From positions 10,566-74,565 of the forward strand of contig JBJKYB010000001.1 of assembly GCA_045561235.1 (NCBI GenBank): a stretch of DNA of 64,000 nt. Reading direction: 5' to 3'. Under the pieces are notes generated by a model that had not been told where the DNA came from, ran no database searches, and saw only the letters and a program-made list of their open reading frames with translations. Positions 14,174 through 27,850 of the stretch are shown one piece after another (within the stretch, counting starts at the first letter, position 1; each line of letters opens with the position of its first letter). The position numbers and the translations under genes are program-made. The stretch comes from Gammaproteobacteria bacterium (lineage in GTDB: Bacteria; Pseudomonadota; Gammaproteobacteria; Poriferisulfidales; GCA-002705445).

Positions 14174-15607
14174 CTAAATACCTCGAATTTTTTTTGAAAA
14201 CATTGCAAAAGGGGTTTTTAAGATGATTTCAAGATCAAGAAAAAGACTCCAATTTTCTATATATTCTATGTCGTATTTATACCAGGTCTCAAAATCGTTT
14301 GTATTTCTTTCATTTATTTGAAGCAAGCCAGTAATTCCCGGCATTACGTTTAACCGTCTCATGTAACTAGTTGTGAATAGTTCTGTATCATTATCAAATA
14401 AAGGTCGAGGTCCAACTATTGACATCTCTCCTTTAAGTACATTAATTAGTTGAGGCAATTCATCTAAACTATACTCTCTAATAAAAGAAAGTCCTTTCAG
14501 AATTCTTGGGTCATTTTCAATTTTAAATAAAGGACCTTTACCTTTGTTGAGATCTTCAAGTTCACTTCGTAATTCATGAGACTCCTTTTTCATTGTTCTG
14601 AATTTATACATACTAAATTGATCTCCATGTAATCCAACTCGATTTTGTTTAATAACGATTGGAGTACCATCTTTTATAAAAATAAAAATAGAAATTAATA
14701 AAATAACCGGCGAGAACAATGCCAATAAAATTAAACTAAGAAAAATATCATTTGCTCTTTTCAGGATAAACTTGGCACCGTATTGTATATCATTATTAAA
14801 ATAAATAAGCCTAGAGTCTTCTAAAGCTTCTTCCCTATAAATAAAATTATTAGCAAACTTTAATTTACTTTTTGAAATTATTAAAACTTTTTTATTTAGA
14901 TTAATTAAATATTTTTCAAGCTCTTCTGAAATGGATTCAAAATTTAACTCTATAACAACTAAATTTACTTTATTCTTCTTATTCTCCCTATTAATAATCT
15001 TTATAATTTCTTCACTTGTATTAATACTTTCTGTAAAAAAAGATCCTAAGTTTTTTCGAAAAGTCATTATTCTTAATTTTCTAAATTTTGAATTCTCATC
15101 CAAGTTAAATGAAATAAAAGATTCATTTGTTACAGATCTGCCGAGTAAAGTTGATATAAATTCAGTATTTCTAAAAACAAGCAATATTAAAGGAATTAGA
15201 AAAGAAAATAGCAAAAGACTTCCTCTAAACAAGTTATTAAACCTTAATATAAAGAAGCTAACCATTAAGTAGCTTGTCCAAACAAGGTAAATTTGAAAAT
15301 ACTCACCAAACAGATTTCTATTCATAGAGTATGTAAGTTCATTTACATATGTATAAAACTTTGTCGAATAAAGTAAAAGTAAAAAAATAAATATTAATAA
15401 TGCCAAAACTAAATCTACAGAAATTAAACTATCACTTAGTAAAGGAAAAAACCGTTCTTTGTCTTCAAGTAAATTGAGATAAATCTCTCTCTTAAATTCT
15501 TGACTCCAAATTAAATAATTATCAAAGTAAAAGATTGTAAATGCTGTGAGAATTCCTTGTAACATTAGGAATCTAAGTGAATATTTTGCTAAAGCCTTTA
15601 TCTTCAT
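14174..15607 (-). CDS. Initiating polyprenyl-phosphate phosphoglycosyltransferase (WcaJ/WbaP-type sugar transferase)
   Basis: KRANDI, YKFRTM, DPRI, SLDELPQLINVLKGEMSIVGPRP, PGITGLLQ, DIEYIENWSLFLD. Confidence 0.92.
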   Translation of the reverse strand: MKIKALAKYSLRFLMLQGILTAFTIFYFDNYLIWSQEFKREIYLNLLEDKERFFPLLSDSLISVDLVLALLIFIFLLLLYSTKFYTYVNELTYSMNRNLFGEYFQIYLVWTSYLMVSFFILRFNNLFRGSLLLFSFLIPLILLVFRNTEFISTLLGRSVTNESFISFNLDENSKFRKLRIMTFRKNLGSFFTESINTSEEIIKIINRENKKNKVNLVVIELNFESISEELEKYLINLNKKVLIISKSKLKFANNFIYREEALEDSRLIYFNNDIQYGAKFILKRANDIFLSLILLALFSPVILLISIFIFIKDGTPIVIKQNRVGLHGDQFSMYKFRTMKKESHELRSELEDLNKGKGPLFKIENDPRILKGLSFIREYSLDELPQLINVLKGEMSIVGPRPLFDNDTELFTTSYMRRLNVMPGITGLLQINERNTNDFETWYKYDIEYIENWSLFLDLEIILKTPFAMFSKKIRGI

Positions 15608-15675
15608 CTACTCCATATTATTGGTAATAAATTTATTACTATGTATTTTTTTTGTAGTTATACTTTATTTATTAC

Positions 15676-15753
15676 GGGGGCGTGGTGAAGTCTGGAGTTC
15701 ACGCCTGCCTGTCACGCAGGAGGTCGCGGGTTCGAATCCCGTCGTCCCCGCCA
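15676..15753 (+). tRNA. tRNA-Asp(GUC)
   Basis: Acceptor GGGGGCG/CGTCCCC, anticodon arm CCTGC-CTGTCAC-GCAGG, T arm GCGGG-TTCGAAT-CCCGT, encoded CCA. Confidence 0.95.
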
Positions 15754-15756
15754 ACT

Positions 15757-15829
15757 GGCCAGATAGCTCAGTCGGTAGAGCACTTGTCTGAAAAACAAGG
15801 GGTCGGCAGTTCGATTCTGCCTCTGGCCA
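15757..15829 (+). tRNA. tRNA-Phe(GAA)
   Basis: Acceptor GGCCAGA/TCTGGCC, anticodon arm CTTGT-CTGAAAA-ACAAG, T arm GGCAG-TTCGATT-CTGCC. Confidence 0.95.
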
Positions 15830-15855
15830 CTGGGTTTTTTCCTAGTGAACACAGA

Positions 15856-15876
15856 ACTGTGCCATAAACTGTGGCA
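15856..15876 (+). repeat. Tandem 9-bp direct repeat, candidate integrase arm-type site
   Basis: ACTGTGCCA-TAA-ACTGTGGCA. Confidence 0.6.
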
Positions 15877-15954
15877 GATAGTTTGAAGATTTAGACTTAT
15901 AAACAACAAATTTTTTATAATTGTCAATCGTAGTACTATTGAAAAAAGAAAAAT

Positions 15955-16875
15955 ATGATGAAGAACAAGATGAAGAACAATTCTAATATTAGTTTTAAAA
16001 ACAAGCTTGTGGCTGGAGCTCTTGTCTCTGGTGTTGCAATTACTGCGTTTGTCTTAATTAGTGATTTAGATATTTCTTCAGATGATATTAATGAAATTTT
16101 TGATGAGGCATTAGAAGAGAATACTGAGCTTGTAACTAAATTGTGTAAAGAAAATCTAAATGAAACTACAGAAGCTCAAGAATTTCTTGACATTCTTGGT
16201 GATTCGGGCTTTAACATTGGTGGTGATTCGGGCTTTAACATTGGTGATCCGGGCTTTACAGAAGACAATAATCAGCTCGCTACAGTCATAAAGAGGTGTG
16301 ATGAAATTTTGAATTCTACAACTATTACTCTTACTTCAACAACCATTCCCGTTGAGACAACAATTCCAGTTGAGACAACTACAACTACGACTATTCCGAG
16401 CACAGAGTGTGATGAGTCCTTATCTAAAGTTGTAGCTGAAGACCCTAGCCAGGTTAGGGTATCTATTATTCAAGATGCCATTTATGCAGAGTATTACGAT
16501 GATGGGGAATCTTATATTGATAAAGGTATCTTGATTTGTTGGGAACCATTTTTAGTTGACGGGTTAGAATCTGAAGACTACTGGGTAGTATTTGGTTGGA
16601 CATTAGATGATTATATCTCAGCTGACGGAGGTAGTTATGACACCGGAGTAATTTATTCAGTGTCATCAAGATATGGACCTTATGGAGATGAAGAACCCGC
16701 CAGAACATATATGTTTTTTGATTATGAGTATTTTTATAATTTTGATGAAGCAAAACCATTCATTGTGAATGAAAAATTGCAGATTTACTTCCAAATAGAA
16801 GCACTTAATGAGAGCTCTCCGAATTATTGGTCTGAAAAAACTCAGCCTGTTTCAGTCATAATAGATGTTCCTTAA
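15955..16875 (+). CDS. Membrane-anchored acidic surface protein with GDSGFNIG repeats and Thr-rich linker (cassette cargo)
   Basis: N-terminal TM (LVAGALVSGVAITAFVLI), GDSGFNIG x2 plus DPGF, TTIPVE x2, aromatic-rich C-terminal domain. Confidence 0.8.
   Translation: MMKNKMKNNSNISFKNKLVAGALVSGVAITAFVLISDLDISSDDINEIFDEALEENTELVTKLCKENLNETTEAQEFLDILGDSGFNIGGDSGFNIGDPGFTEDNNQLATVIKRCDEILNSTTITLTSTTIPVETTIPVETTTTTTIPSTECDESLSKVVAEDPSQVRVSIIQDAIYAEYYDDGESYIDKGILICWEPFLVDGLESEDYWVVFGWTLDDYISADGGSYDTGVIYSVSSRYGPYGDEEPARTYMFFDYEYFYNFDEAKPFIVNEKLQIYFQIEALNESSPNYWSEKTQPVSVIIDVP
16198..16258 (+). repeat. In-frame 24-bp tandem repeat
   Basis: GGTGATTCGGGCTTTAACATTGGT x2 followed by partial GATCCGGGCTTTA. 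Confidence 0.9.
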
Positions 16876-16917
16876 ATACTAAATAATTACAACAAGAAGT
16901 TATCTAGGAAGTTATTT

Positions 16918-16937
16918 ACTGTGCCAAAACTGTGCCA
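16918..16937 (+). repeat. Tandem 9-bp direct repeat, candidate integrase arm-type site
   Basis: ACTGTGCCA-AA-ACTGTGCCA, same motif and orientation as 15856-15876. Confidence 0.6.
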
Positions 16938-17055
16938 CTTGGGTTTCTTTATTGTGATTTATTTACTGCTCGTTAGATGATACAAGCGCAAGGTAATGAG
17001 CGAAAACTAACAACGAATAAGTTACAATGAGATAAGGTCAAGTGGTCTGCCTTTA

Positions 17056-17100
17056 TCTGAAAAACAAGGGGTCGGCAGTTCGATTCTGCCTCTGGCCACT
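17056..17100 (+). repeat. att-like copy of tRNA-Phe 3' half (exact)
   Basis: TCTGAAAAACAAGGGGTCGGCAGTTCGATTCTGCCTCTGGCCACT identical to 15787-15831. Confidence 0.97.
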
Positions 17101-17153
17101 AGATAATTATAAAAAACAATATGAATATACAGCTTATTTTGAAGATATAAACA

Positions 17154-17981
17154 ATGTGCAAAAAAACTGTCTTAAATAGATTGACTGGAAGAGATTTTTA
17201 TTTAAGTTATGCCGCATTTTCAATAGTCGCTACAAATCGATTAAAACTTTTTAAATTAGGAAAATTTGTTGACATAAACGAAGTCAGTAAATCAGATGAT
17301 ATGTATGGTGTTTGGAAAAATGTTAACAATTTGAATAAGTTTTTAGGGTTTCGACTTACAAATATAGATTTAATACAGTTTATATCTACGTTGCTATCTC
17401 AAAAGGTTGTTTATACAGAAATAGGCGTTTCTGTATTAAAAAATTTTTACTTAATGGCAAATTTTTTAAACAAGTCTGAATTATATGCATTTGATATTAA
17501 TGATATATATAAGCCTATGGAGGAGAAATTTAAATTTGTGAATAAATCTGGGATTAAAAAAAACTATGTTTTGGACAACAATGAAATAATTTATTTTAAA
17601 GGGGATGTTTTTTCTTCAGATGACTTGACAGCTTTTTCTGATGAATTTAAAGGAAAGACAAATTTAATTTATTCAGATGCTGATCACACAGAAAAAGGTT
17701 TGCTGTTTGAATATGAATATTTTTATAAATTAGTTTTGGATGAAGAGTTTATTTTATACTTCGATGATGTAAACTCAAAAACTATGCCTGGGTTTTTAAA
17801 AATTCTCGAAAAAATTAGAACAGAAAGACCCTCCAGTAGTATTAATGGTTATACATTCTGGATAAATGGCTGGATGGGAAAGAATAAAAATCAGCATCGA
17901 AATGGAATAATAAGTACTGTGAATATTCACAATGCATTGAAAAAAAATAAAATAAAGTTAAAAAACTTCAAGATACTTTAG
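17154..17981 (+). CDS. Putative class I SAM-dependent methyltransferase
   Basis: YTEIGVS, YAFDIN, IYSDADH, LYFDD motifs. Confidence 0.6.
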   Translation: MCKKTVLNRLTGRDFYLSYAAFSIVATNRLKLFKLGKFVDINEVSKSDDMYGVWKNVNNLNKFLGFRLTNIDLIQFISTLLSQKVVYTEIGVSVLKNFYLMANFLNKSELYAFDINDIYKPMEEKFKFVNKSGIKKNYVLDNNEIIYFKGDVFSSDDLTAFSDEFKGKTNLIYSDADHTEKGLLFEYEYFYKLVLDEEFILYFDDVNSKTMPGFLKILEKIRTERPSSSINGYTFWINGWMGKNKNQHRNGIISTVNIHNALKKNKIKLKNFKIL

Positions 17982-17993
17982 CGATTATTAATT

Positions 17994-18839
17994 TTAGACT
18001 TTTATACCAACTCTTCCTGTAAAATCTGATTGAGCAAAAAATGGCCTTGTAGGTGTATCGTGCCTTAAAAAATAGTCATCAACTGCTTTTCTTGCTCCAT
18101 CCCAATACCCATAATCATCGATTAGAAGTACTCCACCAATTTCAAGTTTAGGATACAAAACTTCTAATTCAACGATAGTTGAATCGTACCAATCAGTATC
18201 AAGCCTTAAAACAGAAATTTTTTCAGGTAAATTTGATTTAATTTTTAAAGTATCTTCTACTTTTCCTTTTATAAAAGTTATATTTTCGAGAGTTAAGCCT
18301 GCTTTTTTAAAATTTTCTCTTACCTCATCTAGGGAGGCATAGCACCAAGAATTGAAATTTAGTTCTTGGTGTTTATTAAAGACATTTTTTGAGGTATCAC
18401 CAATAAATACTGATTTATCTACACCATCATCAGGTTCACTCATTCCTGTAAAGGTATCATAAATGTAAAAATTTCTATTTTTAAAGTACTTCTTACATGC
18501 AAGTGATGCTGCTATAGCATTACCACCCCTCCATGTTCCACACTCTACAAATGAACCTCGAATATTATTAAACTCTACATGCTTGACCGCTAGGACAGTG
18601 TCTGTCAATCTAGCGGGAGATACCATTGTTAAATCATTTTTTAAAACATACTTTATTGCATTTACATCTTCTTCATTTAATTCTGGTCGCTTTTCTAGAA
18701 ATTTATTTTTTTTTATTCTTTCAACTCTTTCTAGATTCAAATATTCATAGCTAAGTTGTTTGTTATCATATTTAGTTTTTAAGATTTCGTAATTAAATGA
18801 TTCAAAAATTTTTTTAATTATTTTTTTAAAAAACTGCAT
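17994..18839 (-). CDS. TylF/MycF/NovP-family O-methyltransferase
   Basis: GSFVECGTWRGG, YDTFTGM, LRLDTDWYDST, LIDDYGYWDGARKAVD. Confidence 0.92.
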   Translation of the reverse strand: MQFFKKIIKKIFESFNYEILKTKYDNKQLSYEYLNLERVERIKKNKFLEKRPELNEEDVNAIKYVLKNDLTMVSPARLTDTVLAVKHVEFNNIRGSFVECGTWRGGNAIAASLACKKYFKNRNFYIYDTFTGMSEPDDGVDKSVFIGDTSKNVFNKHQELNFNSWCYASLDEVRENFKKAGLTLENITFIKGKVEDTLKIKSNLPEKISVLRLDTDWYDSTIVELEVLYPKLEIGGVLLIDDYGYWDGARKAVDDYFLRHDTPTRPFFAQSDFTGRVGIKV

Positions 18840-18989
18840 TACATAAATTAATTTAGCAGGTTTGAATCATAGCTTGATTCAATTGGAATAATTGTTATTT
18901 ATCAAATCAAAACTTGTAAAGAAGACTAATTTAAATTATTTGCATGGCTGTAGATTTTGATTGAGATTTAGTATAAAGTTTTTTATGAA

Positions 18990-20348
18990 ATGAAAAATTA
19001 TAATTTTAACTTCTCAAATTCTGTATTTGTTTTGATAAGCATTTCAACTTTGTTTATTTTAATTTATAACATTTTTCATTACTCTCCAATTCTGGGTTAC
19101 GATGCTGAAGCACACTTCAATTATGTTGATTATTTATCCAGGTATCTTCCTAAAGAAATAAAATTACCTAGCCAAGATGAAACAAGAGAATTTTTCAATC
19201 CACCAATCGGTTATCTTTTTCCTTCATTTGCACAACTAATTTGCAGAAATATAATTGAATCCAATAACTTATTATCTGATTGTCAGCCTATCTATGGTAA
19301 AGCAACCCAAATATTTCAATCTATTTTATATGTAATAACTTTATGTATTAATCTTTTTACGTTAAAACTAGTTACAAAATCAAAAAATATTTTTAATGTT
19401 GAGTATTTAATTTTAATTTCTCTCCTCGCTGTAAATTACAGGACAATATCAATGATTCGTGGTGAAACATATATACTATTTTTTCTAAGTTTATTCTTAC
19501 TGGTTGTACTAAAAGCAGATAACCATAATTATGATTTAGGTTTGAAACAAATAATTTATACAGGTGTCATTATTGCCTGCATTGCATTAAGTAGACAATG
19601 GGGCTTTTTATTATTCATTCCATTAATTGTTTTATTAATTTATAAAAACACAAAACTAAATTATTTCAAATTTTGGTCAAAAAGTGCATCTATCGGTGCG
19701 TTATTATCAAGCTGGTTTTATGTTGGTCTATATCAGAATTATGGATCTTTTACTGCCTTCAATATGGAATCAAAAGGCTTTTCATTAAACAATCAAAATC
19801 TATCTTTTTATATACCTAATTTCTCTCAACTTGAGTTCTTATTTACAAAACCGATTAGACCTAATTTAAATAATCAATTTATTTCTATATTATATTCTGA
19901 TTTATGGGGTGATTACTGGGGATATTTTACTTTTACATCTAGGTTTTTAAATGATGGTCGAAATCAATTAAATATTGGAGACTATCTTGCAAGAGTAAAT
20001 CTTGTTTCAATTATCACTACTTTTATTGTCGTTATTTTTTGCTACCTAGCCTACAAAAAGTATAAATCTAATTTTATTATTCAGTATGTCAATTTAGCTT
20101 GGATTGCAAGCCTAATAGGCTATTTACTATTTACAATTTCATATCCTAATTCAACTGGAGATACAATTAAATCCACATACATAATTCAAGCATTTCACTT
20201 AATGGTATTTTTGGCATCTATCTACTTTTATGAATTGAAAAGAGTAAATAAAAAAATGCATACTGGGGTTATAATTTCGTTGATTATTATTTATATTCAT
20301 AATTTCCAATCATATTTATCACACTTTCCATACAATTTTTTACCTTAA
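18990..20348 (+). CDS. GT-C-like polytopic membrane glycosyltransferase
   Basis: GYDAEAH acidic motif after first TM, NPP, about 11 TM; homologous motifs to 53516-55183. Confidence 0.6.
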   Translation: MKNYNFNFSNSVFVLISISTLFILIYNIFHYSPILGYDAEAHFNYVDYLSRYLPKEIKLPSQDETREFFNPPIGYLFPSFAQLICRNIIESNNLLSDCQPIYGKATQIFQSILYVITLCINLFTLKLVTKSKNIFNVEYLILISLLAVNYRTISMIRGETYILFFLSLFLLVVLKADNHNYDLGLKQIIYTGVIIACIALSRQWGFLLFIPLIVLLIYKNTKLNYFKFWSKSASIGALLSSWFYVGLYQNYGSFTAFNMESKGFSLNNQNLSFYIPNFSQLEFLFTKPIRPNLNNQFISILYSDLWGDYWGYFTFTSRFLNDGRNQLNIGDYLARVNLVSIITTFIVVIFCYLAYKKYKSNFIIQYVNLAWIASLIGYLLFTISYPNSTGDTIKSTYIIQAFHLMVFLASIYFYELKRVNKKMHTGVIISLIIIYIHNFQSYLSHFPYNFLP

Positions 20349-20453
20349 TTTATTTTTATTTAAATAAATTATCCTTTTGAAATATATTTTTTGAGGATAT
20401 AGGTTATAATTTTCAAAGCGGCAAAACGGGGGAGCAGAAAGGCTTCCTTGAGC

Positions 20454-22115
20454 ATGTTTAAAATTCGACATCTCAATCTCAATTTAGAAAAAAATTTTAT
20501 TCCTGCTCTAATTTTTGTGTGCGGTTTATATTTTAGGTTTTTATGGTCACATCTCTCTCAATGGAAACATGAAGAAGCAGTAATATTGTGGATTTCTTTA
20601 ACAAAAAATATTCTCAATTCTCCATTTAGTAATGTATCGTCACCTGGGGTTCCTAATCCAAATTTATCGATTCTTTTTTCAAAAGTATTAATTTTATTTG
20701 ATTCTTTTGTTGCAGTTTCAATATTTTTAAGTTCTGTTCAGTGTATTATCTTATTCTTTTGTTTAAAAACAACCGATAAAAAATTTAATATTATTTTAGG
20801 CCTCTTTTTGTCTTTTAGTTCGTACCTTGTTTTTGTAACATCTTCAATTGCTTTACATATGGCAGTCTTAACTTTTAATGCATTATTTTTAAAATTATTT
20901 TTTGAATACTTTCTATATAAAAAATATTATCTAGGATCTTATTTTCCAATAGTAACTATTTTGCCAGTATCTCTTTATCTTGGTGGATTTTCAAACACTT
21001 TGATATATTTTTTAATTTTTGTTGGCATATTATTATTTAATTTTAAAAATTTCAAAATGAACTTTTCGAGTAAATACCATTTTGGTGCAGGACTCTTTCT
21101 ACTTACTTCTATTTTTTACATCACGTGGTATCAATATTTTACTAATATTGAATTTAATTCTTTAAAAATACAAAGTTCAGGAACTGAACTTTTTCCTTAT
21201 TCAAGAATTATGGATTATCTTTATTTAGGGGTTCAAAATACTAAAATCTTTCCATCTTTTTTCTTAAATATTTTTGCTGATCAAGCAAATATTTATTGGC
21301 CATTTCAATACAGTGATAAGTTTTCACCATCAACGGAAAATACTGTTGGTCTTTTACTAAAATATCATAAAATTTTTAATCTATTTTCTGTCTTAGCTAT
21401 TTTCTCTGGATTATTTGTAAGCGACTCAAAATTTAAAAAAAAGGTTAATACTGAATACTTACTGAAAGCTATTTTTACACTTTTTCTAATATATGTTTAT
21501 ACCGTATTAACACCGATTTTGGGGCAGGGAAGGTCTTTTTTTGATTTTGATATTGGTAGTTTAATGGTTTATTCATCAATGTATATTCTTTACATATATC
21601 TATGGTCTACTTCTTTTTTTATTTTCAGATATAATAAATTATTTTCTAGGAGCATTGTATTATTTATATCCTCTTTTTTTCTTTTAAATCTAATTACTTC
21701 CAAAAGCCTTCAGAATGAATTTAACAATTCTATAAGTTATGGCCATTCTGTCGCTGATGAATCAATAATTCATAAAGAAGAAATAGTCGATTTTTTAGCT
21801 GGATATGTTAATGATGAAATATCAATTTATTACGGTCTAATGGAATTTGAGTACGAATGGTCAAATTATTTTAATCAAATAAACTATTCCGGTTCTTATT
21901 ACAAATTTATATACAGCAATGGAAGAGAGTTTGATTATTTATTAAAGAGAAAATATGGGATTGATAATTTACAAGAAGGTTTTTTAAATAGAAATCCAGA
22001 CAATACTCAATTTTTTCTTAGCTACTCCTTTGACGATCTACCTACGGATGTTTACAAGAACTTCAATCACTATCAGTTTGGCAATTATATTGTGACTGTT
22101 AACTTAGATTTTTAA
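20454..22115 (+). CDS. GT-C-like polytopic membrane protein (paralog of 22880-24532)
   Basis: WKHEE after first TM, SSPGVPNPNL, C-terminal GREFDYLLKRKY. Confidence 0.6.
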   Translation: MFKIRHLNLNLEKNFIPALIFVCGLYFRFLWSHLSQWKHEEAVILWISLTKNILNSPFSNVSSPGVPNPNLSILFSKVLILFDSFVAVSIFLSSVQCIILFFCLKTTDKKFNIILGLFLSFSSYLVFVTSSIALHMAVLTFNALFLKLFFEYFLYKKYYLGSYFPIVTILPVSLYLGGFSNTLIYFLIFVGILLFNFKNFKMNFSSKYHFGAGLFLLTSIFYITWYQYFTNIEFNSLKIQSSGTELFPYSRIMDYLYLGVQNTKIFPSFFLNIFADQANIYWPFQYSDKFSPSTENTVGLLLKYHKIFNLFSVLAIFSGLFVSDSKFKKKVNTEYLLKAIFTLFLIYVYTVLTPILGQGRSFFDFDIGSLMVYSSMYILYIYLWSTSFFIFRYNKLFSRSIVLFISSFFLLNLITSKSLQNEFNNSISYGHSVADESIIHKEEIVDFLAGYVNDEISIYYGLMEFEYEWSNYFNQINYSGSYYKFIYSNGREFDYLLKRKYGIDNLQEGFLNRNPDNTQFFLSYSFDDLPTDVYKNFNHYQFGNYIVTVNLDF

Positions 22116-22121
22116 CATTTA

Positions 22122-22817
22122 ATGAAAAATATAAATTACTCAGTAATAATGCCTTTTTTTAATGAAGAAAAAACACTAGAAACTGCAGTTTTAAATTTAT
22201 TAAAAGAAGACTTTGCCAGCGAGATTATTTTGGTTAATGATGGATCATACGATAACTCATATGAAATTGCTTTAAAACTAATTAATAAATATAAAAATAT
22301 TAAATTAGTTAACTCAAAAACAAATAAAGGAAAAGGACATGCTCTCAAAGTTGGAATTAACGAATCAACTAAAAAATACATTGGGATACTTGATGCTGAT
22401 TTGGAGTACTCACCAAATGATTTAAAAAGATTATTTTTTGAAATTAATTCAAGTGAAGGTGATGTAACATGCGGTTCAAGATTTATAGGTGATTTTAAAA
22501 GGGAAAATATATATTTAAGAACCTATTTTGCTAATAAGTTTTTAAGTAAGCTTTTTTCAACGATACATAAACAAAAAGTTACAGATATTGCAACCTGTCT
22601 TAAAGTTTTTAGAAAAGATATTCTTCAATCTATTGAGCTAAAAGAAAAAGGTTTTACTATAGAGGTAGAACTTTTGGCAAAAACCCTTGCTAAGTCAAAT
22701 AAATATACTGAAATTCCCATAAGCTATTCTGCTAGGAGTTATAAAGATGGAAAAAAAATAAAATTCATTGATGGTTTTAGATATATCGCCTCTATCTTCA
22801 AATTGGCTAGTCAATAA
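22122..22817 (+). CDS. GT2 polyprenyl-phosphate glycosyltransferase (DPM1/GtrB-like)
   Basis: SVIMPFFNEE, NDGS, NKGKG, DADLEY, GSRF, EIPISYSAR...GKKIKFIDG. Confidence 0.9.
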   Translation: MKNINYSVIMPFFNEEKTLETAVLNLLKEDFASEIILVNDGSYDNSYEIALKLINKYKNIKLVNSKTNKGKGHALKVGINESTKKYIGILDADLEYSPNDLKRLFFEINSSEGDVTCGSRFIGDFKRENIYLRTYFANKFLSKLFSTIHKQKVTDIATCLKVFRKDILQSIELKEKGFTIEVELLAKTLAKSNKYTEIPISYSARSYKDGKKIKFIDGFRYIASIFKLASQ

Positions 22818-22879
22818 AATAAAAATGAAGATTAATACTTACAAATATTTAATTACAAAATCTATAGTTTAAAAAAATC

Positions 22880-24532
22880 ATGAAAAATTTTAAAATACAA
22901 AAAGAAAAAGCACTTTTCTCTCTTGCTACAGTTTTATTAATTATTTATAAAATTTTTTGGGGTGCAATAGCTGCATCTTGGAGAGAAGATGAGTCAACTG
23001 TAATTTGGATTGCTGACAATATAACGGCTATAAATACTCATGTAGGTCTTATAAGTTCAGTAGGGCTACCAAATCCAAATTTATTAATCTTATTTTCAAA
23101 AATATTTACAATTTTTGACTCCCTAATTTCCGTCTCTTTATTTATTGCTTTTTTAAATATTATCCTTATTTATCTGGCACTAAAAAACAAAGAAAATGAT
23201 TATAAAAATATTCTTTTATTTTTACTAATTGGATTTTCAACCTACTTAAGCCAGCATACAATTGAGCCATGGGGACAATCTTTATTAACAACTATTAACT
23301 CTTTATTTTTATATTTTTTATTTAAATTTGCTGTTAATAAACAATATTATTTATTTCCTTTATTTCCTGTTATTGCAATCTTGCCATCTGGGATTTATCT
23401 TGCAGGTTTAACAAACTCTGTATTGTATACAATATTTTTTACAATTTTTACTTTGTTATATATAAAAAATATAAAATATTTTTTTACCAATAAATATATA
23501 AATTTGATTTCAATAACTTTATTATTTTTAATCTCTAGATTAACTTGGATTCCCTATTTCAATAAAGTCACTCTAAATGAAATTTCAAAAGTTGGAAACA
23601 GCTCACATGATATTTTATTGATATTTATTGAGAGATATAAGAATACCGTTAGATCATTATTCGGATTTTGGGTTGATGATAGGTCATATTATTTTCCAAC
23701 TATGAATACCAATATAATTTCTAATTCAACTAATGATCTTTATCAATTATTTCTAAAATTTCATTGGTTTCTTCAGAGATATGCGCTGATAAATATTTTG
23801 TTAATTTTTATCCTATTAATATTTTTTCAAAAAATGCTTGATATGCATTATATTAAAAAAGTTTTTATTCTAATTTTTTATTTGTTCTTGTTTACATCTA
23901 TAAGTCCTGCTGTTGGTGGAAGAGAGTTTCTAAAATATCAAAGAATGGATAATTATATAGAAACATATTTTATTTATTTATATTTATGGTTTTTCTTGGG
24001 ATATTGTTATAAAAATTTTAAACTATCAAAATTGTTTCATTTTTTAAATAGTTTTTTAATTGTAGTTTTTGTTGTATTCAACGTATATTTTTCTTACAAT
24101 ATTTTAATTGACAACTATCAAAATAAAGCAAGTGTTTTGTCGGAATCTGATGTACCCATGTTGCATAAACAGCAAATTACAGAATTTATTGCTGATGATT
24201 GGAGTAAAACAGGAGACAGCAAAAAAATTCCAATTTTTTATGATTTGGGAGGCGGTATCTACGACTGGGTAAACGAATTTGGTACAAAGTATTCACCATA
24301 TTATCCATCAAATCCATACACAATTGGACGAGGATTCGATTACATATTTAAGAAAAAATATGACTTAAGTAATTCGCAAGAAGGAAAACAATTTAGGAAT
24401 ATAGACGAAGCAAAGTATATTATTTCTTATATATTCACCGAGGAAAATAAAGAGATTTATGATGAATATGAAAATATTTATTTTGGTAAGTTAAGGTTGT
24501 CAATAAATAACAATTTTGATTTGAACAACTGA
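22880..24532 (+). CDS. GT-C-like polytopic membrane protein (paralog of 20454-22115)
   Basis: WREDE after first TM, SSVGLPNPNL, C-terminal GRGFDYIFKKKY. Confidence 0.6.
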   Translation: MKNFKIQKEKALFSLATVLLIIYKIFWGAIAASWREDESTVIWIADNITAINTHVGLISSVGLPNPNLLILFSKIFTIFDSLISVSLFIAFLNIILIYLALKNKENDYKNILLFLLIGFSTYLSQHTIEPWGQSLLTTINSLFLYFLFKFAVNKQYYLFPLFPVIAILPSGIYLAGLTNSVLYTIFFTIFTLLYIKNIKYFFTNKYINLISITLLFLISRLTWIPYFNKVTLNEISKVGNSSHDILLIFIERYKNTVRSLFGFWVDDRSYYFPTMNTNIISNSTNDLYQLFLKFHWFLQRYALINILLIFILLIFFQKMLDMHYIKKVFILIFYLFLFTSISPAVGGREFLKYQRMDNYIETYFIYLYLWFFLGYCYKNFKLSKLFHFLNSFLIVVFVVFNVYFSYNILIDNYQNKASVLSESDVPMLHKQQITEFIADDWSKTGDSKKIPIFYDLGGGIYDWVNEFGTKYSPYYPSNPYTIGRGFDYIFKKKYDLSNSQEGKQFRNIDEAKYIISYIFTEENKEIYDEYENIYFGKLRLSINNNFDLNN

Positions 24533-24600
24533 TGGCAAAAATTTAAATTTATCATAGATTTAGATACATAATCTCAATCATAAATTTATAATTAAATAGT

Positions 24601-24679
24601 AAAGAATGTGTTTATAATCAACTTAGGTCAAATGGTTAGCCCACATCTACTAAAACAAGGGATCGGCAGTTCGATTCTG
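24601..24679 (+). repeat. Degenerate att/tRNA-Phe 3' copy with upstream conserved module
   Basis: 24652-24679 matches tRNA-Phe 15792-15819 at 27/28; upstream 24601-24650 resembles 17012-17060. Confidence 0.88.
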
Positions 24680-24692
24680 TTAATGACTTCAA

Positions 24693-26012
24693 ATGTGTGG
24701 AATTTACTTTTCAAATAATGGCGAAACTGCCAAATTAGATAAAAAGTTTTTAACTCGTGGCCCTGATTATTACAACGAAAAATATTTTAATAATTTATGC
24801 ATGAGTCATTCTCTTTTAAGCCTGACAGGTGAATTCACTACCCAGCCTGTTTCAAAAAAAGATATAAATCTTATATTTAATGGTCAAATTTATAATTATG
24901 ATTCAACGAAGTACTTATCAGACTCATATTTTATTCTTGATGAATATATTAAGAATCCAAAGTCTTTTTGGAAGAATCTTGATGGAGAATATGCAATTGT
25001 TATATACGATAGCAAAAATAGTAAGGTAATCTTTCTTACTGATATTTTCGGAACGAAGCCTTTATATTATTCAGTCGAAAAAGAAATAATAACTATTTCT
25101 TCTTTAAAATCTACTCTAGAAGAAAATGGCCACAAAAATATAATAAAGTGTAAACCAAATACAAGTTATTCATTTGACTTAATTAATTCAAATTTACAAA
25201 TAGAGGAAGAGTATTTTAAGTTTAACTTAGATCAACATGTTGATAGTTATGATGGTTGGAATGAAAAGTTTATAGAAAGTATAAAAAAAAGATTTATGAA
25301 TACAAATCATGGAATAATACTCCCACTCAGTAGCGGTCATGACAGTGGGGCAATTTCTTTAGCTTTTGATTTATTAGGTATCGAATATTATACATATTCA
25401 TTTTTTAGGCATGAGCACAGAAAAATACTATCAAAAAGAATTATGCGAAGGCTTATAAATTCGCCATTTAGGACTAGATTTAAAAAAGATTTACAGAATC
25501 ATAAAGTCAGAAATCGTATAAAGAAACACATAAATCAAAATAGTGATAAATTTTACTACGGCCCTAATATTGAAAACCTAACCATAAATGGACACGAGGA
25601 TCCTGGAGCAATTGGATTGTCGTATATTTTAGAAAGGATGAAAAATATAGATTCCAAAATTAAAATTGTTGCGTCAGGCCAAGGTGCTGATGAAATTTTT
25701 TCTAATATTCAAAACTATAAATTTGAAAAGCCAAACCCCAAGTTCTTTACTGAGAATTTAAAAGACATATTTCCTTGGCAAAATTTTTACTACGGTACTC
25801 AAATTAGCTATTTAGGTAAAGAGGAATCTATTGGAGGTAGTTTTGGTCTTGAAACAAGATATCCATTTCTTGATAAGAATTTAGTACAGGAGTATTTAAA
25901 CCTTAAACCAGAGTTAAAAAATAAATATTATAAAGCCCCCATAACCAACTTTTTAATGCAACACAATTATCCATTTCGTAAAGATATCAGCAAAACAGGA
26001 TTCAACCCTTAA
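24693..26012 (+). CDS. Asparagine synthetase B-family glutamine amidotransferase (probable glycan amidation)
   Basis: N-terminal MCGI, RGPD, FNGQIYN, LSSGHDS, SGQGADEIF, ETRYPFLD. Confidence 0.88.
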   Translation: MCGIYFSNNGETAKLDKKFLTRGPDYYNEKYFNNLCMSHSLLSLTGEFTTQPVSKKDINLIFNGQIYNYDSTKYLSDSYFILDEYIKNPKSFWKNLDGEYAIVIYDSKNSKVIFLTDIFGTKPLYYSVEKEIITISSLKSTLEENGHKNIIKCKPNTSYSFDLINSNLQIEEEYFKFNLDQHVDSYDGWNEKFIESIKKRFMNTNHGIILPLSSGHDSGAISLAFDLLGIEYYTYSFFRHEHRKILSKRIMRRLINSPFRTRFKKDLQNHKVRNRIKKHINQNSDKFYYGPNIENLTINGHEDPGAIGLSYILERMKNIDSKIKIVASGQGADEIFSNIQNYKFEKPNPKFFTENLKDIFPWQNFYYGTQISYLGKEESIGGSFGLETRYPFLDKNLVQEYLNLKPELKNKYYKAPITNFLMQHNYPFRKDISKTGFNP

Positions 26013-26042
26013 TTCAAGCCAACTGTGCATCAAAAACTTTGT

Positions 26043-26120
26043 AACGAATCATATATAATTAGTTAAGTTTAAATAATTAACCTATTTTTGGAAAACAAGA
26101 AATCGGCAATTAGATTATGC
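26043..26120 (+). repeat. More degenerate att/tRNA-Phe 3' copy with upstream module
   Basis: 26092-26120 AAAACAAGAAATCGGCAATTAGATTATGC matches tRNA-Phe 15792-15820 at 23/29; TATAAT 38 bp upstream as in the exact copy. Confidence 0.75.
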
Positions 26121-26133
26121 TTATATCAACAAA

Positions 26134-26874
26134 ATGATTAAATACTTTAATCCATTAAATTATTTAAAATATATTCTCAGATTTATAAAATCCTATCTAG
26201 AAAATAGAAATAAAAAACTGATAAACAATAGTGACTTTTTAGAAAAAAAATTAGAAAAAATAAATAATATACATGATTTGTTAGATTTTCATTTTAAAAC
26301 ATACGCAAATCCAAAACATGTTAATAGAGATATGTTCAAAGTTTTATTAGAAAATTCATTCGGCTCAAGCATGAATATTTTGGAAACAGGAAGTGCTGCT
26401 CATGGAACAAAAAGCTCAATACTTTTTGCTAGCTATGTAAAAATCTTTGGTGGACGATTTGAAACTGTTGACATAAATCCAAAAATTAAATTATATTTTA
26501 GTTTTCTTGAATCAAGTAATATTAAATTTCATTCTGAAGATTCCCTAAAGTTTATAAATGATTTAGAAGATAAATATATAAATTCGTTAGATCTTGTATA
26601 TTTAGATAGTTTTGATTTAGATCTTAATAATCCTAGTCCATCTCAAAATCATGGGTTGAATGAGTTTTTGTCATTAAATAAAAATTTGAAAAAAGGAGCA
26701 TTGATAGCAATAGATGACACTCCAATCAGGTATGAACTATTTGGTAATTCAAAAAAAAACAAATTTGATTTTATTCCTGGTAAAGGTCGATTAGTTCTAG
26801 ATTTTCTTGATAAAAATCCAGATCTTTATGAAATTTTGTATCATAACTATTCTGTAGTTCTTAAAAAACTTTAA
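26134..26874 (+). CDS. Putative class I SAM-dependent methyltransferase
   Basis: ILETGS, VDIN, DLVYLDSFD, IAIDDT, GKG. Confidence 0.7.
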   Translation: MIKYFNPLNYLKYILRFIKSYLENRNKKLINNSDFLEKKLEKINNIHDLLDFHFKTYANPKHVNRDMFKVLLENSFGSSMNILETGSAAHGTKSSILFASYVKIFGGRFETVDINPKIKLYFSFLESSNIKFHSEDSLKFINDLEDKYINSLDLVYLDSFDLDLNNPSPSQNHGLNEFLSLNKNLKKGALIAIDDTPIRYELFGNSKKNKFDFIPGKGRLVLDFLDKNPDLYEILYHNYSVVLKKL

Positions 26875-27050
26875 TGTGTATAGAAATTATTTTTTTAATT
26901 AGTAAGAAACATAATATATTATGAATAGCTTAATCTCATGAGCTTTAAAATATTAAATCATATATCTTTTCAAAACATCAAAAAAGGAAAGAAGTTAATT
27001 ACTAAAAATCCTTAAATCTAAAAAAATATTAATTTATCTGTTAACTTTCA

Positions 27051-27074
27051 AGTTATAATCGACTTAGTCAAATT
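27051..27074 (+). repeat. Remnant of the att-associated module (tRNA part lost)
   Basis: AGTTATAATCGACTTAGTCAAATT resembles GTTTATAATCAACTTAGGTCAAATG at 24610-24634. Confidence 0.55.
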
Positions 27075-27094
27075 AATTCTATGGTATTAAATTT

Positions 27095-27850
27095 ATGTTT
27101 GAATTAAAAAAAGTTACAAAAGCAAGAAGAAGATTGCAATTAATAACTAATTTTCTATTTAAATTATTTCAAATAAATTTAAGATATAAAGAAACAAGGA
27201 AAGAATATGGTATTGAGATATTTGAATACTTTTACTTACCTTGGAGAACAAATGAGGTATTTAATTCCGCTTATTCTATGATTTCAGATTACACTTTAAA
27301 TCCAAAATCCAGACTTTATACACTATACGAGTTTTCACAGCGGTACCTACTTGAAAATACCTCATTTATTGAAGTAGGGTGTTGGAATGGTGGAGCATCA
27401 GGATTAGTAGCTTTAACTAATCATAATAAAAACTCTGACTTTATACTTTGTGATACATTTTCTGGAGTAGCAAAAGCTTCAGATAAAGACACCTTCTTTC
27501 AAGGCAATGAATATGCGGATGCAAGTTTAGAAAAAATAAGAGAAATAGAAAATATGCTTAATAAAGAATTAAAGGTTGTAAAAGGAGTTTTTCCTAATTC
27601 AATGGACAAAATTAAAATTGAAAAACCAATCTCATTTGCCCACATTGATGTTGATACTTATGAATCTGCAAAAGAAAGTTTTGAGTACATTTCTATGCAC
27701 GCAATTAAAAATGCAGTGATAATTTTGGATGATTTTGGTGGTTGGTTTACAGATGGTGTGACAAAATTTGGAAATGAACTTAAAAACGATGTTAATTATT
27801 TTGTAGTTCCAAACCACCTTGGCCAAATTGTTATATATAAGATTAATTGA
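27095..27850 (+). CDS. TylF/MycF-family O-methyltransferase
   Basis: IEVGCWNGG, CDTFSG, KGVFP, FAHIDVDTYES, LDDFG. Confidence 0.85.
   Translation: MFELKKVTKARRRLQLITNFLFKLFQINLRYKETRKEYGIEIFEYFYLPWRTNEVFNSAYSMISDYTLNPKSRLYTLYEFSQRYLLENTSFIEVGCWNGGASGLVALTNHNKNSDFILCDTFSGVAKASDKDTFFQGNEYADASLEKIREIENMLNKELKVVKGVFPNSMDKIKIEKPISFAHIDVDTYESAKESFEYISMHAIKNAVIILDDFGGWFTDGVTKFGNELKNDVNYFVVPNHLGQIVIYKIN

Follow-up and report, generated by a model that had tools for sequence, protein, structure and literature searches.

Candidatus Actinomarina is among the most abundant bacteria of the surface ocean, and the locus considered here, an array of gene cassettes stacked behind a tRNA-Phe gene, lies on a contig which, judging from its sequence matches, derives from this group. 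It was analysed in a 64,000 nt stretch of DNA (the window; C1:10566-74565, where C1 is contig JBJKYB010000001.1), and all coordinates without a prefix are window positions. Small cassettes inserted at island tRNAs and marked by partial-tRNA repeats have been described for the Actinomarinales by Lopez-Perez et al. (2020; PMC7771536), whose passages on this island, named fGI1, state that mobile elements are absent. [quoted passage not shown] The word 'integrase' has no occurrences (0) in either text, and among the titles and abstract openings of the literature on Actinomarinales islands and tRNAs and on Actinomarina integrases, no integrase, attP or integrase-less mini-cassette with both arms was found, although supplementary Fig. 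S4A of PMC7771536 may show arrays. In Prochlorococcus, the tycheposons (Hackl et al., bioRxiv 10.1101/2020.12.28.424599) are presented, in the passages that define them, as tRNA-targeting elements with a tyrosine recombinase, an excisionase, a helicase/primase and cargo, which lie in tandem split by partial tRNAs, with newcomers pushing older elements inward and with degenerate integrases and scattered partial tRNAs alongside. The cis-mobilisable elements (CIMEs) of streptococcal islands of integrative and conjugative (ICE) or integrative and mobilisable (IME) elements have, in the relevant part of PMC5704250, lost their integration genes and kept attL and attR; new elements integrate beside them and the composite can move.

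The locus resembles each of these systems in part. As in the passages on fGI1/HVR, the organism group and the island are the same, envelope-glycan genes lie beside selA and tRNA-Arg/Lys/Asp/Phe, and small cassettes are inserted at a tRNA; added here to those accounts are the cassette arms, an integrase family, integrase-bearing 'master' elements of 7-9 kb and the cross-species identity of integrase-less cassettes. The architecture of the master elements resembles that of the tycheposons as described in the passages cited, since a tRNA target, an excisionase-like gene, a helicase/primase-like gene, cargo and tandem accretion are common to both, and the tycheposon-type flanks (a full tRNA and a partial-tRNA direct repeat) are present in the window. 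The element-encoded recombinase is absent from the window units and present in the same-armed loci L140, L181, L159, L163 and others. According to the same passages, Prochlorococcus genomes hold one or two integrase-carrying elements each and no mention is made of integrase-less units that keep both arms, whereas no full-length integrase of the present family was found in 65 Actinomarinales genomes, while integrase-less mini-cassettes of 0.6-3 kb are common here. The unit nearest the tRNA, cassette 1, retains its att sites without integration genes, as CIMEs do; unlike the CIMEs of the portion cited, which are decayed conjugative elements of Firmicutes and typically many kb long, the master elements have no conjugation genes and their derivatives are as small as 0.6 kb.

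It is considered likely, with a probability of about 0.8, that the island grew by serial site-specific integration of one family of small integrative elements at tRNA-Phe. Accretion was probably in tandem, with decay to CIME-like cassettes which would still be mobilisable. In this family the attP is made up, in order, of a direct-repeat pair of 10-12 nt, a short inverted repeat, a conserved module of about 70 nt, the 43-45 nt of tRNA-Phe that run from the anticodon loop to its 3' end, a T-rich stretch and the same pair again. Complete elements measure 7-9 kb and contain, besides cargo, a helicase/primase-like gene (AAA_25), an excisionase-like gene (HTH_17) and a tyrosine integrase of about 381 aa, which lies at the right end. 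Each integration would rebuild the tRNA with the 3' half of the element, while the former 3' half, behind the right arm of the element, would be pushed into the island. Integrase and backbone would then be deleted in the streamlined host, so that integrase-less units keeping both att sites, that is CIME-like cassettes, would remain, and older units would also lose their arms and fuse. Crossover would take place in the anticodon loop, with the repeat pairs as putative arm-type integrase sites, and the newest cassettes could be moved by the integrase of a co-resident or incoming master, either in trans or by cis-mobilisation after accretion. What the sequences show of this are the repeats, the arms that the units have in common, their connection with integrase-bearing elements, the vestige of an integrase and the sharing of cassettes across species.

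The attachment site is the tRNA-Phe(GAA) gene called by ARAGORN at 15757..15830 (+), which has no encoded CCA. Its downstream part belongs to a family of four direct repeats at 15784-15831, 17053-17100 (98 %), 24644-24691 (65 %) and 26084-26131 (67 %). A 30-mer of the 3' half, allowing three mismatches or fewer, matched at 15792, 17061 and 24652, with none (0) expected on the basis of 100 shuffles, and local alignment of the 45-nt half gave scores of 45, 45, 26 and 18 against a window background maximum of 12. These results agree with an earlier note on this DNA, which had reported that the tRNA-Phe 3' half recurs at 17056-17100, 24652-24679 and 26092-26120. The first of these att copies (17056..17100, +) is a displaced 3' half identical at 45/45 positions, while the second (24652..24679, +) is identical at 27/28 positions, with the last ~12 nt of the tRNA replaced. 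Partial copies exist only for tRNA-Phe among the five tRNAs of the contig. The non-tRNA module in front of each copy had been reported to hold a TAYAAT motif 38, 39 and 38 nt before AAAAC, a spacing confirmed by reading the sequence.

Within the window, the module alone reached local scores of 16.5 and 14, where the background is 13.5, which is marginal, and the decisive test therefore used junctions from elsewhere. A joint profile of the module and the tRNA half, built from 13 junctions of other genomes with the window excluded, matched 16993-17099 (E 5e-33), 24611-24679 (E 4.5e-13) and 26039-26121 (E 7e-5), as well as tRNA-Phe itself (E 3e-17). A profile of the module only matched 16918-17060 (E 2.5e-30) and 24612-24648 (E 1.4e-4), and the copy at 26043 was not detected by it. 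The claim that the same module precedes each copy thus holds, as the profile from other genomes finds all three. A further, module-only remnant had been claimed at 27051-27074, and here the outcome is divided: both profiles miss it (E>10), while 27053..27073 (+), directly upstream of a TylF-like gene at 27095-27850, shares 20/20 specified bases, with a 1-nt gap, with 24612-24633 (0 expected in shuffles), by a pattern drawn post hoc from both copies. This remnant is closer to the 24612 copy than the nearer 26054 copy is.

The sequence upstream of the 13 other-genome junctions aligns over ~160 nt, and a common right arm can be distinguished. It opens, at about -145 to -122, with a 10-12-mer present twice in succession, its period being 11-12 nt and its sequence different between units, followed by a short inverted repeat (TTATTTACTGCTCATTGC ... 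AATGAGCGA), by GAATAAGTTAnAATGA and then AAGGTCAAATGGTTTGCC, and by TCTGA, after which the tRNA identity block begins, in all junctions at one and the same anticodon-loop base. Eighteen right ends, 17 of them from metagenome contigs, align with invariant blocks. The left ends, 3' of the tRNA, fall into a few conserved types ([T/A]AGGGTTTTT.., AATAAACATAGGCTC.., or CAATAnCnATAAnG..TTTTTTC), and the doubled repeat then follows. In the window cassette 1 (AACTGTGCCA) and in L063/L091, L064, L082 and L043, the left-hand repeat pair agrees with the right-hand pair of the same unit, and the positions of the pairs, at about -145 and at +25 to +50 relative to the identity block, recall those of the arm-type sites of a phage attP. 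A further tRNA-Phe copy was found in 19/35 genome loci with at least 2 kb of downstream sequence, 17 of these with the module. The earlier view that one family with shared ends has inserted repeatedly at the segment from the anticodon loop to the 3' end is supported. The junctions also attract tRNA predictions, ARAGORN calling a pseudo 'tRNA-Phe' of 80 nt at 17020-17099 and, in ~13 metagenome junctions also, calling the module and half together a tRNA-Phe of 80-82 nt with the anticodon at position 40. The conserved AGGTCA of the module can pair with the acceptor 3' strand, and GCCYTT with AAGGGG; RNAalifold of the 18 right ends returns these pairings and the T arm as a tRNA-like fold without a D arm. 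In L054, L073, L089 and L090, from other Actinomarina genomes, a partial tRNA-Phe 3' half at a second locus, near lexA/nrdR-like genes, adjoins a conserved gene starting MKRIYTFGHEQV and is followed by element-type left ends with doubled repeats; this locus may be a secondary attachment site.

The source of the arms was sought among tyrosine integrases. No six-frame match to PF00589 occurs on C1, the assembly matches lying only on C2, and tblastn of the window with seven integrases of the family gave nothing below E 0.1; the window therefore lacks an integrase, as had been stated, and holds only a 24-nt vestige at 16887-16910. In a single-amplified genome (L039), what is left of an integrase is a C-terminal piece of 145 aa whose end lies 175 bp upstream of an att copy, and full-length relatives of ~381 aa, up to 97 % identical and with the catalytic R..HxxR..H..Y conserved, are found in public protein sets. 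A metagenome scan yielded 573 pattern-matching stretches, of which 485 encode integrase relatives and 80 were kept as loci. The joint profile made 49 module-plus-half matches on 39/80 of these loci, most with E of ~1e-24 to 1e-32, and in 19/19 contigs with both a full-length integrase and a junction, the module and tRNA-Phe half lie 172-1259 bp downstream of the integrase stop. The search which the earlier note had proposed, for a tyrosine integrase associated with the same module, thus finds full integrases adjoining it in ~40 metagenome contigs. In its main lines the interpretation in that note stands, and its description of the cassettes as non-autonomous holds for the window units, none of which has an integrase, but not in the sense that they would be independent of an integrase by nature, given the vestige and the full integrases beside the module.

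Complete integrated elements between two att copies are present in L140 (9.1 kb), L181 (7.4 kb) and L159 (9.0 kb), the last of which directly follows tRNA-Lys/Asp/Phe and is itself followed by an integrase-less unit of 1.5 kb. These master elements encode cargo without assigned function, an AAA_25 protein that matches primases/helicases in PHROG, an HTH_17 protein for which PHROG gives excisionase matches, a protein of 247-313 aa and, at the right end, the integrase. The module is the integrase-proximal attP arm of these 7-9 kb elements. The family integrase is distantly related (up to 29 % identity) to those of temperate phages whose hosts are Gram-positive bacteria; the solved proteins closest to it go by the names Integrase, XerA, Int protein and IntI4, and PF00847 is among the precomputed domains of several of its relatives. 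The repeat pairs are specific to the integrase subtype, in the integrase-bearing L181, L159 and L199 the pair at one end is matched by that at the other, and the left pair of L140 equals the right pair of L139, both of which share the same integrase.

Cassette 1 links the window directly to these elements. Its left arm (15831..15880, +) consists of TGGGTTTTTT and the doubled 10-mer AACTGTGCCA/AACTGTGGCA at 15855-15876, an architecture that is also seen behind the tRNA of many other genomes and in elements with an integrase. The right arm (16918..17055, +) begins with the doubled repeat ACTGTGCCA/AACTGTGCCA (16918-16937) and continues with the inverted repeat GCTCGTTA/TAATGAGC (16968-16975 and 16994-17001) and the module GAATAAGTTACAAT..AAGGTCAAGTGGTCTGCCTTTA, and this right end is 97.3 % identical over 182 nt to that of L163, where it lies downstream of a full-length integrase. 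The cargo gene (15955..16875, +) encodes a protein of 306 aa without a family match, in which one N-terminal transmembrane (TM) segment, a linker rich in Thr and Pro and, internally, a GDSGFNIG repeat can be recognised; the gene is 84.7 % identical over 991 nt to the one directly after the full integrase in L143. Between cargo and right arm lies the vestige of an integrase 3' end (16887..16910, +; ..QQEVI stop), with 22/24 bases of the end of the family's integrase gene; it is the sole match in the window (0 in 100 shuffles), and its position relative to the repeat pair is as in L132 and L039. On account of both arms, the L143-like cargo, the L163-like right end and the vestige, cassette 1 can be identified, at the level of sequence, as a deletion derivative of an integrase-bearing element that has kept a complete attL and attR. 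With the tRNA (15757-15830) and the copy at 17056-17100 enclosing both arms, matching pairs and a vestige, but no integrase, it fits the CIME definition published in the part of PMC5704250 cited above. In the metagenome contigs L143 and L145, a homologue of the cassette-1 gene has the full integrase on one side and, on the other, before the right arm, a stub of ~17 codons from the 3' end of a second integrase, an arrangement that looks like the capture of a cassette by a master element. The GDSGFNIG repeat comprises three tandem copies of a 21-24-nt unit (16196-16258), of which 21 nt at 16221 are absent from one metagenome contig, and the L143 and L145 homologues differ in the number of TTIPVE-coding repeats.

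Integrase-less cassettes are also shared between loci, all of which are from different species representatives. A 626-bp cassette is 98.9-99.7 % identical in L064, L075 and L051, occupying the first position in the L064 and L075 arrays and the second in L051, and is 90 % identical in L041, where it has the right end of the window type. Similarly, a 758-bp cassette is 99.3 % identical in L051 and L061+L049, and a 953-bp cassette shows 98.7 % identity between L063 and L091. Next to the cassettes, the chromosomal flank of these pairs reaches no more than 67-70 % identity, and the identity of the cassettes is bounded exactly by the att copies. Relatives differ in cassette content and order, whereas an identical gene order across them had been named as the outcome that would speak against repeated insertion. 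One unit, at 5238-5487 of L069 (oriented), is an 'empty' one of 169 bp without cargo, in which a tRNA half with slight degeneration is followed by the left end TGGGTTTTTTCCTAGTG, only one repeat pair, the right arm in complete form and a second, exact tRNA half.

The att copies decay with distance from the tRNA in this window, as had been claimed, with 0, 0, 12 and 13 mismatches in the 43-nt half. The further proposal of a time-ordered array, newest nearest the tRNA, survives as a trend, seen in this window and in 5/9 informative arrays, but not as a strict order. Among 11 arrays with at least two junctions (L159/L160 counted once), five are monotonic, two are ties and four non-monotonic, so that insertion next to the tRNA can be taken as a tendency only, with insertion at displaced copies, conversion or deletion also occurring.

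These non-monotonic arrays are one of several points that weigh against serial site-specific integration as outlined above. No full-length family integrase was found in 65 Actinomarinales genomes, with fragments only in G064 and G123, nor in 60 genome tiles, and the helper must therefore be rarely, if ever, resident. No excised circle, empty site or excision joint was found in the Logan contigs of four runs. The att copies and modules decay in parallel in older copies, with no sign of selection to keep them. In the tRNA-like fold of the 18 right ends there are no (0) compensatory pairs, because the 3' partner is invariant, and a role as RNA is unsupported. The AP2-like N-terminal match of the integrase reaches 20.5 bits against the Pfam cut-off of 33.3. 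L139 and L140 have the same N-terminal 62 residues and different right-end pairs, while L136 and L137 share an N-terminus and have pairs that differ at two positions; a strict correspondence between repeat pair and integrase was rejected because of these exceptions, and on account of the L140 right pair and the L136/L137 difference the pairs can be put forward only as candidate arm-type sites. Finally, each unit lies between direct repeats that are nearly identical and 45 to ~210 nt long, and the empty L069 unit looks like a deletion between two repeat pairs, both of which speak for homologous exchange, discussed below. The other PF00589 matches in the genomes searched were Xer-like ORFs or integrases at tRNA-Leu and tRNA-Val, the integrases of L106 and L110 being set aside as other elements sited at these two tRNAs. 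The integrase stub in L103 (G123) has no tRNA-Phe copy within 3 kb. A viral contig collection contained no (0) exact 39-mer copies and no relative of the integrase remnant. The Logan contigs break at the tRNA and at 17071 and none bridges the cassette-1 junctions; their summed depth is higher over 16005-17006, a difference that is not interpretable.

The explanation that survives best beside site-specific traffic, though it is on balance unlikely, is that the units are inert scars, that is immobile remnants of deletion whose presence in several genomes reflects inheritance or the homologous replacement of island segments. The vestige in cassette 1 would fit such scars, as would the C-terminal integrase stubs upstream of the modules in L039, L070, L182, L184, L187, L188, L191, L192, L199 and L206, the lack of a resident family integrase in the 65 genomes, the decay of the older copies and the identical configuration, at 99 % or above, in contigs of four studies. 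Dead remnants would not, however, be expected to share the same deletion end-points at 98.7-99.7 % across species with flanks of 67-70 %, with identity bounded exactly by the att copies, nor to occupy different array positions (the 626-bp unit being first in L064/L075 and second in L051) while keeping both arms with matching repeat pairs. An improbable route for such movement is RecA-type traffic, in which cassettes loop out and re-insert through the 45-nt tRNA repeats and the ~165-nt arms after DNA uptake, without an integrase. The flanking repeats and the empty L069 unit are in keeping with it, and so are the mosaic cassettes, L041 combining the L064 cargo with a window-type right end, and the want of a resident integrase. 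Yet the arms belong to elements with an integrase and an excisionase-like gene of their own, one and the same anticodon-loop base marks the start of the identity block in all junctions, as for a fixed crossover site, and 45 nt is a poor substrate for homologous insertion.

Integrons hold arrays of recombinase-less cassettes at one fixed site, with insertion mostly next to that site, and the likeness of the present locus to them is behavioural only: recombinase-less cassettes are stacked at one site and their first ORFs are co-oriented with the tRNA. The integron-like label of the earlier note could not be upheld, since no IntI is adjacent, there is no attI or attC, the tRNA-derived direct repeats have phage-type arms, and the cassettes derive from autonomous, integrase-bearing elements. 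A true integron-like platform, on which a resident recombinase such as a Xer-like protein captures promoterless cassettes at a fixed site, is very improbable. The five Actinomarina genomes tested do each contain one or two Xer-like ORFs of 288-301 aa that match PF00589, and lack any further full integrase, and the first ORF after each window att copy is on the strand of the tRNA. However, no integrase gene adjoins the site, what recurs are direct copies of the tRNA with phage-type arms rather than attC hairpins, the same arms occur beside a dedicated phage-type integrase in ~40 contigs, and nothing ties Xer to the site. Chance similarity of AT-rich intergenic DNA, for which the in-window module scores barely above background might speak, has next to no probability and is refuted for the three copies by the independent E-values (5e-33, 4.5e-13 and 7e-5), the absence of shuffle matches (0) and the conservation of the module in dozens of other genomes and contigs, so that the earlier note's own test against shuffled AT-rich DNA comes out in favour of the module, with only the 27053 remnant resting on a post hoc pattern.

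Serial integration at tRNA-Phe may also be put in a more far-reaching form, which is offered tentatively and is rather doubtful. An active, population-wide pool of cassettes would exist, in which integrase-less units, as miniature elements whose attP arms are complete, are inserted, excised and captured as cargo by rarely resident masters that perhaps travel in vesicles or capsids; the module of the right arm (GTTAnAAT, 38-39 nt before the tRNA copy) would be an outward promoter, and the island a 'distributed integron' with its recombinase outside the genome.

The assembly comprises three contigs, C1 (125 kb), C2 and C3, and looks chimeric, C1 standing apart from C2 and C3. In the five tRNAs of C1 no CCA is encoded, and among them are duplicates of the C2/C3 tRNAs for Phe, Asp, Lys and Val, in which CCA is encoded. 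With the exception of a 1.8-kb contig fragment in G010, only the tRNA-Phe of the C2 type occurs in the 60 listed relatives of the assembly, while the C1 tRNA-Phe half, as an exact 39-mer, occurs at 60 loci in species-representative genomes, nearly all of them of Candidatus Actinomarina/Actinomarinales/OCS155. A same-genus relative of the bin is classed under Gammaproteobacteria (L083 = G010:C33), and the listed relatives were of no use for comparing synteny with C1. Because C1 matches Actinomarina loci and carries CCA-less duplicate tRNAs, it is taken to be foreign to this bin, namely a Candidatus Actinomarina contig binned into a gammaproteobacterial metagenome-assembled genome. Assembly-wide, ArgRS was detected on C1 only.

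On C1, selA (L-seryl-tRNA selenium transferase; 862-2157) marks the island boundary, followed by tRNA-Arg (9306), tRNA-Lys (14101), tRNA-Asp(GTC) (15676..15753, +; ARAGORN) and tRNA-Phe. tRNA-Asp belongs to a conserved island-edge tRNA cluster which is syntenic in most Actinomarina loci: the segment 13000-15830, with an MpaB-like gene, tRNA-Lys, a sugar transferase, tRNA-Asp and tRNA-Phe, is syntenic with most of them at ~70-79 % identity, and the similarity to Actinomarina genomes ends exactly at the tRNA-Phe 3' end. Glycosyltransferases lie on both sides. Given selA, these glycosyltransferases and the synteny, the window shows the boundary of an envelope-glycan island, and the features of the Actinomarinales fGI1/HVR are all found, comprising the conserved position, selA, the Phe/Arg/Lys/Asp tRNAs, the envelope-glycan genes and the synteny. 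The region can thus be assigned, by gene content and order, to the tRNA-Phe edge of the envelope-glycan flexible island fGI1/HVR.

Beyond cassette 1, three further units follow. Unit 2 (17101..24596; 7.5 kb) holds six genes, coding for a 275-aa protein without assigned function, a TylF-like methyltransferase (- strand), a 452-aa protein with 7 TM segments, a 555-aa protein with 8, a GT2 family glycosyltransferase and a 550-aa protein with 8 TM segments. It is without recognisable cassette arms, and the gene for its 452-aa 7-TM protein makes up, on its own, the cargo of a cassette in L069 (70 %) and of one in L059 (83 %), in the latter as the first unit after the tRNA; unit 2 is therefore probably a fused composite of several units. 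The second module copy (24597..24651, +; TATAAT at 24613-24618) has lost the upstream part of its arm and leads, through att copy 2, to unit 3 (24693..26012, +), an AsnB-like glutamine amidotransferase of 439 aa. The eroded third module and att copy (26039..26121, +; att part 26092-26121; profile E 7e-5) precedes unit 4 (26134..26874, +), a protein of 246 aa without a family match. Units 3 and 4 are single genes which start 14 nt after eroded att copies. The third junction and the gene next to it (26039-26892) are shared with L059 at 73 %, from which this part of the array is judged to be old. Altogether, the gene content includes a GT2 glycosyltransferase, two methyltransferases resembling TylF, an AsnB-like amidotransferase, three proteins with 7-8 TM segments and a Thr-rich one with a single TM segment, while protein family scans found the helicase/primase and excisionase module absent from the window units. 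Contigs of four independent studies match the region at 99 % or above and bridge both old junctions, and 14800-18200 is present at a word share of 0.87-0.97 in 19 runs of 10 studies; the configuration of the array is thus fixed in a widespread population. The plus-strand ORFs starting at 17154, 24693, 26134 and 27095 each begin 14-54 nt after an att copy or module remnant, with TAYAAT 41-131 nt upstream, and the TAYAAT of the module could be an outward promoter for the gene behind it. A consensus promoter and terminator scan gave 74 sites against 77 expected from shuffles of this AT-rich DNA, and is uninformative on the module and on a common promoter (Pc) of the integron kind directed into the array.

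The mechanism proposed is of a known kind, here in an extreme form, and much of its setting is already in print, in that tRNA cassettes of the Actinomarinales, accretion of tycheposons and CIMEs are each described in the passages cited above. The only order-wide flexible island of Actinomarina encodes the cell surface met by phages and grazers, and how this island is rebuilt is left open by both Actinomarina genome papers in their accounts of it. The analysis adds a family of candidate integrases, an attP whose parts are defined and a set of mini-cassettes that lack an integrase and are common to several species, which together make this question experimentally testable. The tycheposon and accretion model would thereby be extended to a streamlined Gram-positive lineage, in the genomes of which almost only non-autonomous derivatives are left.

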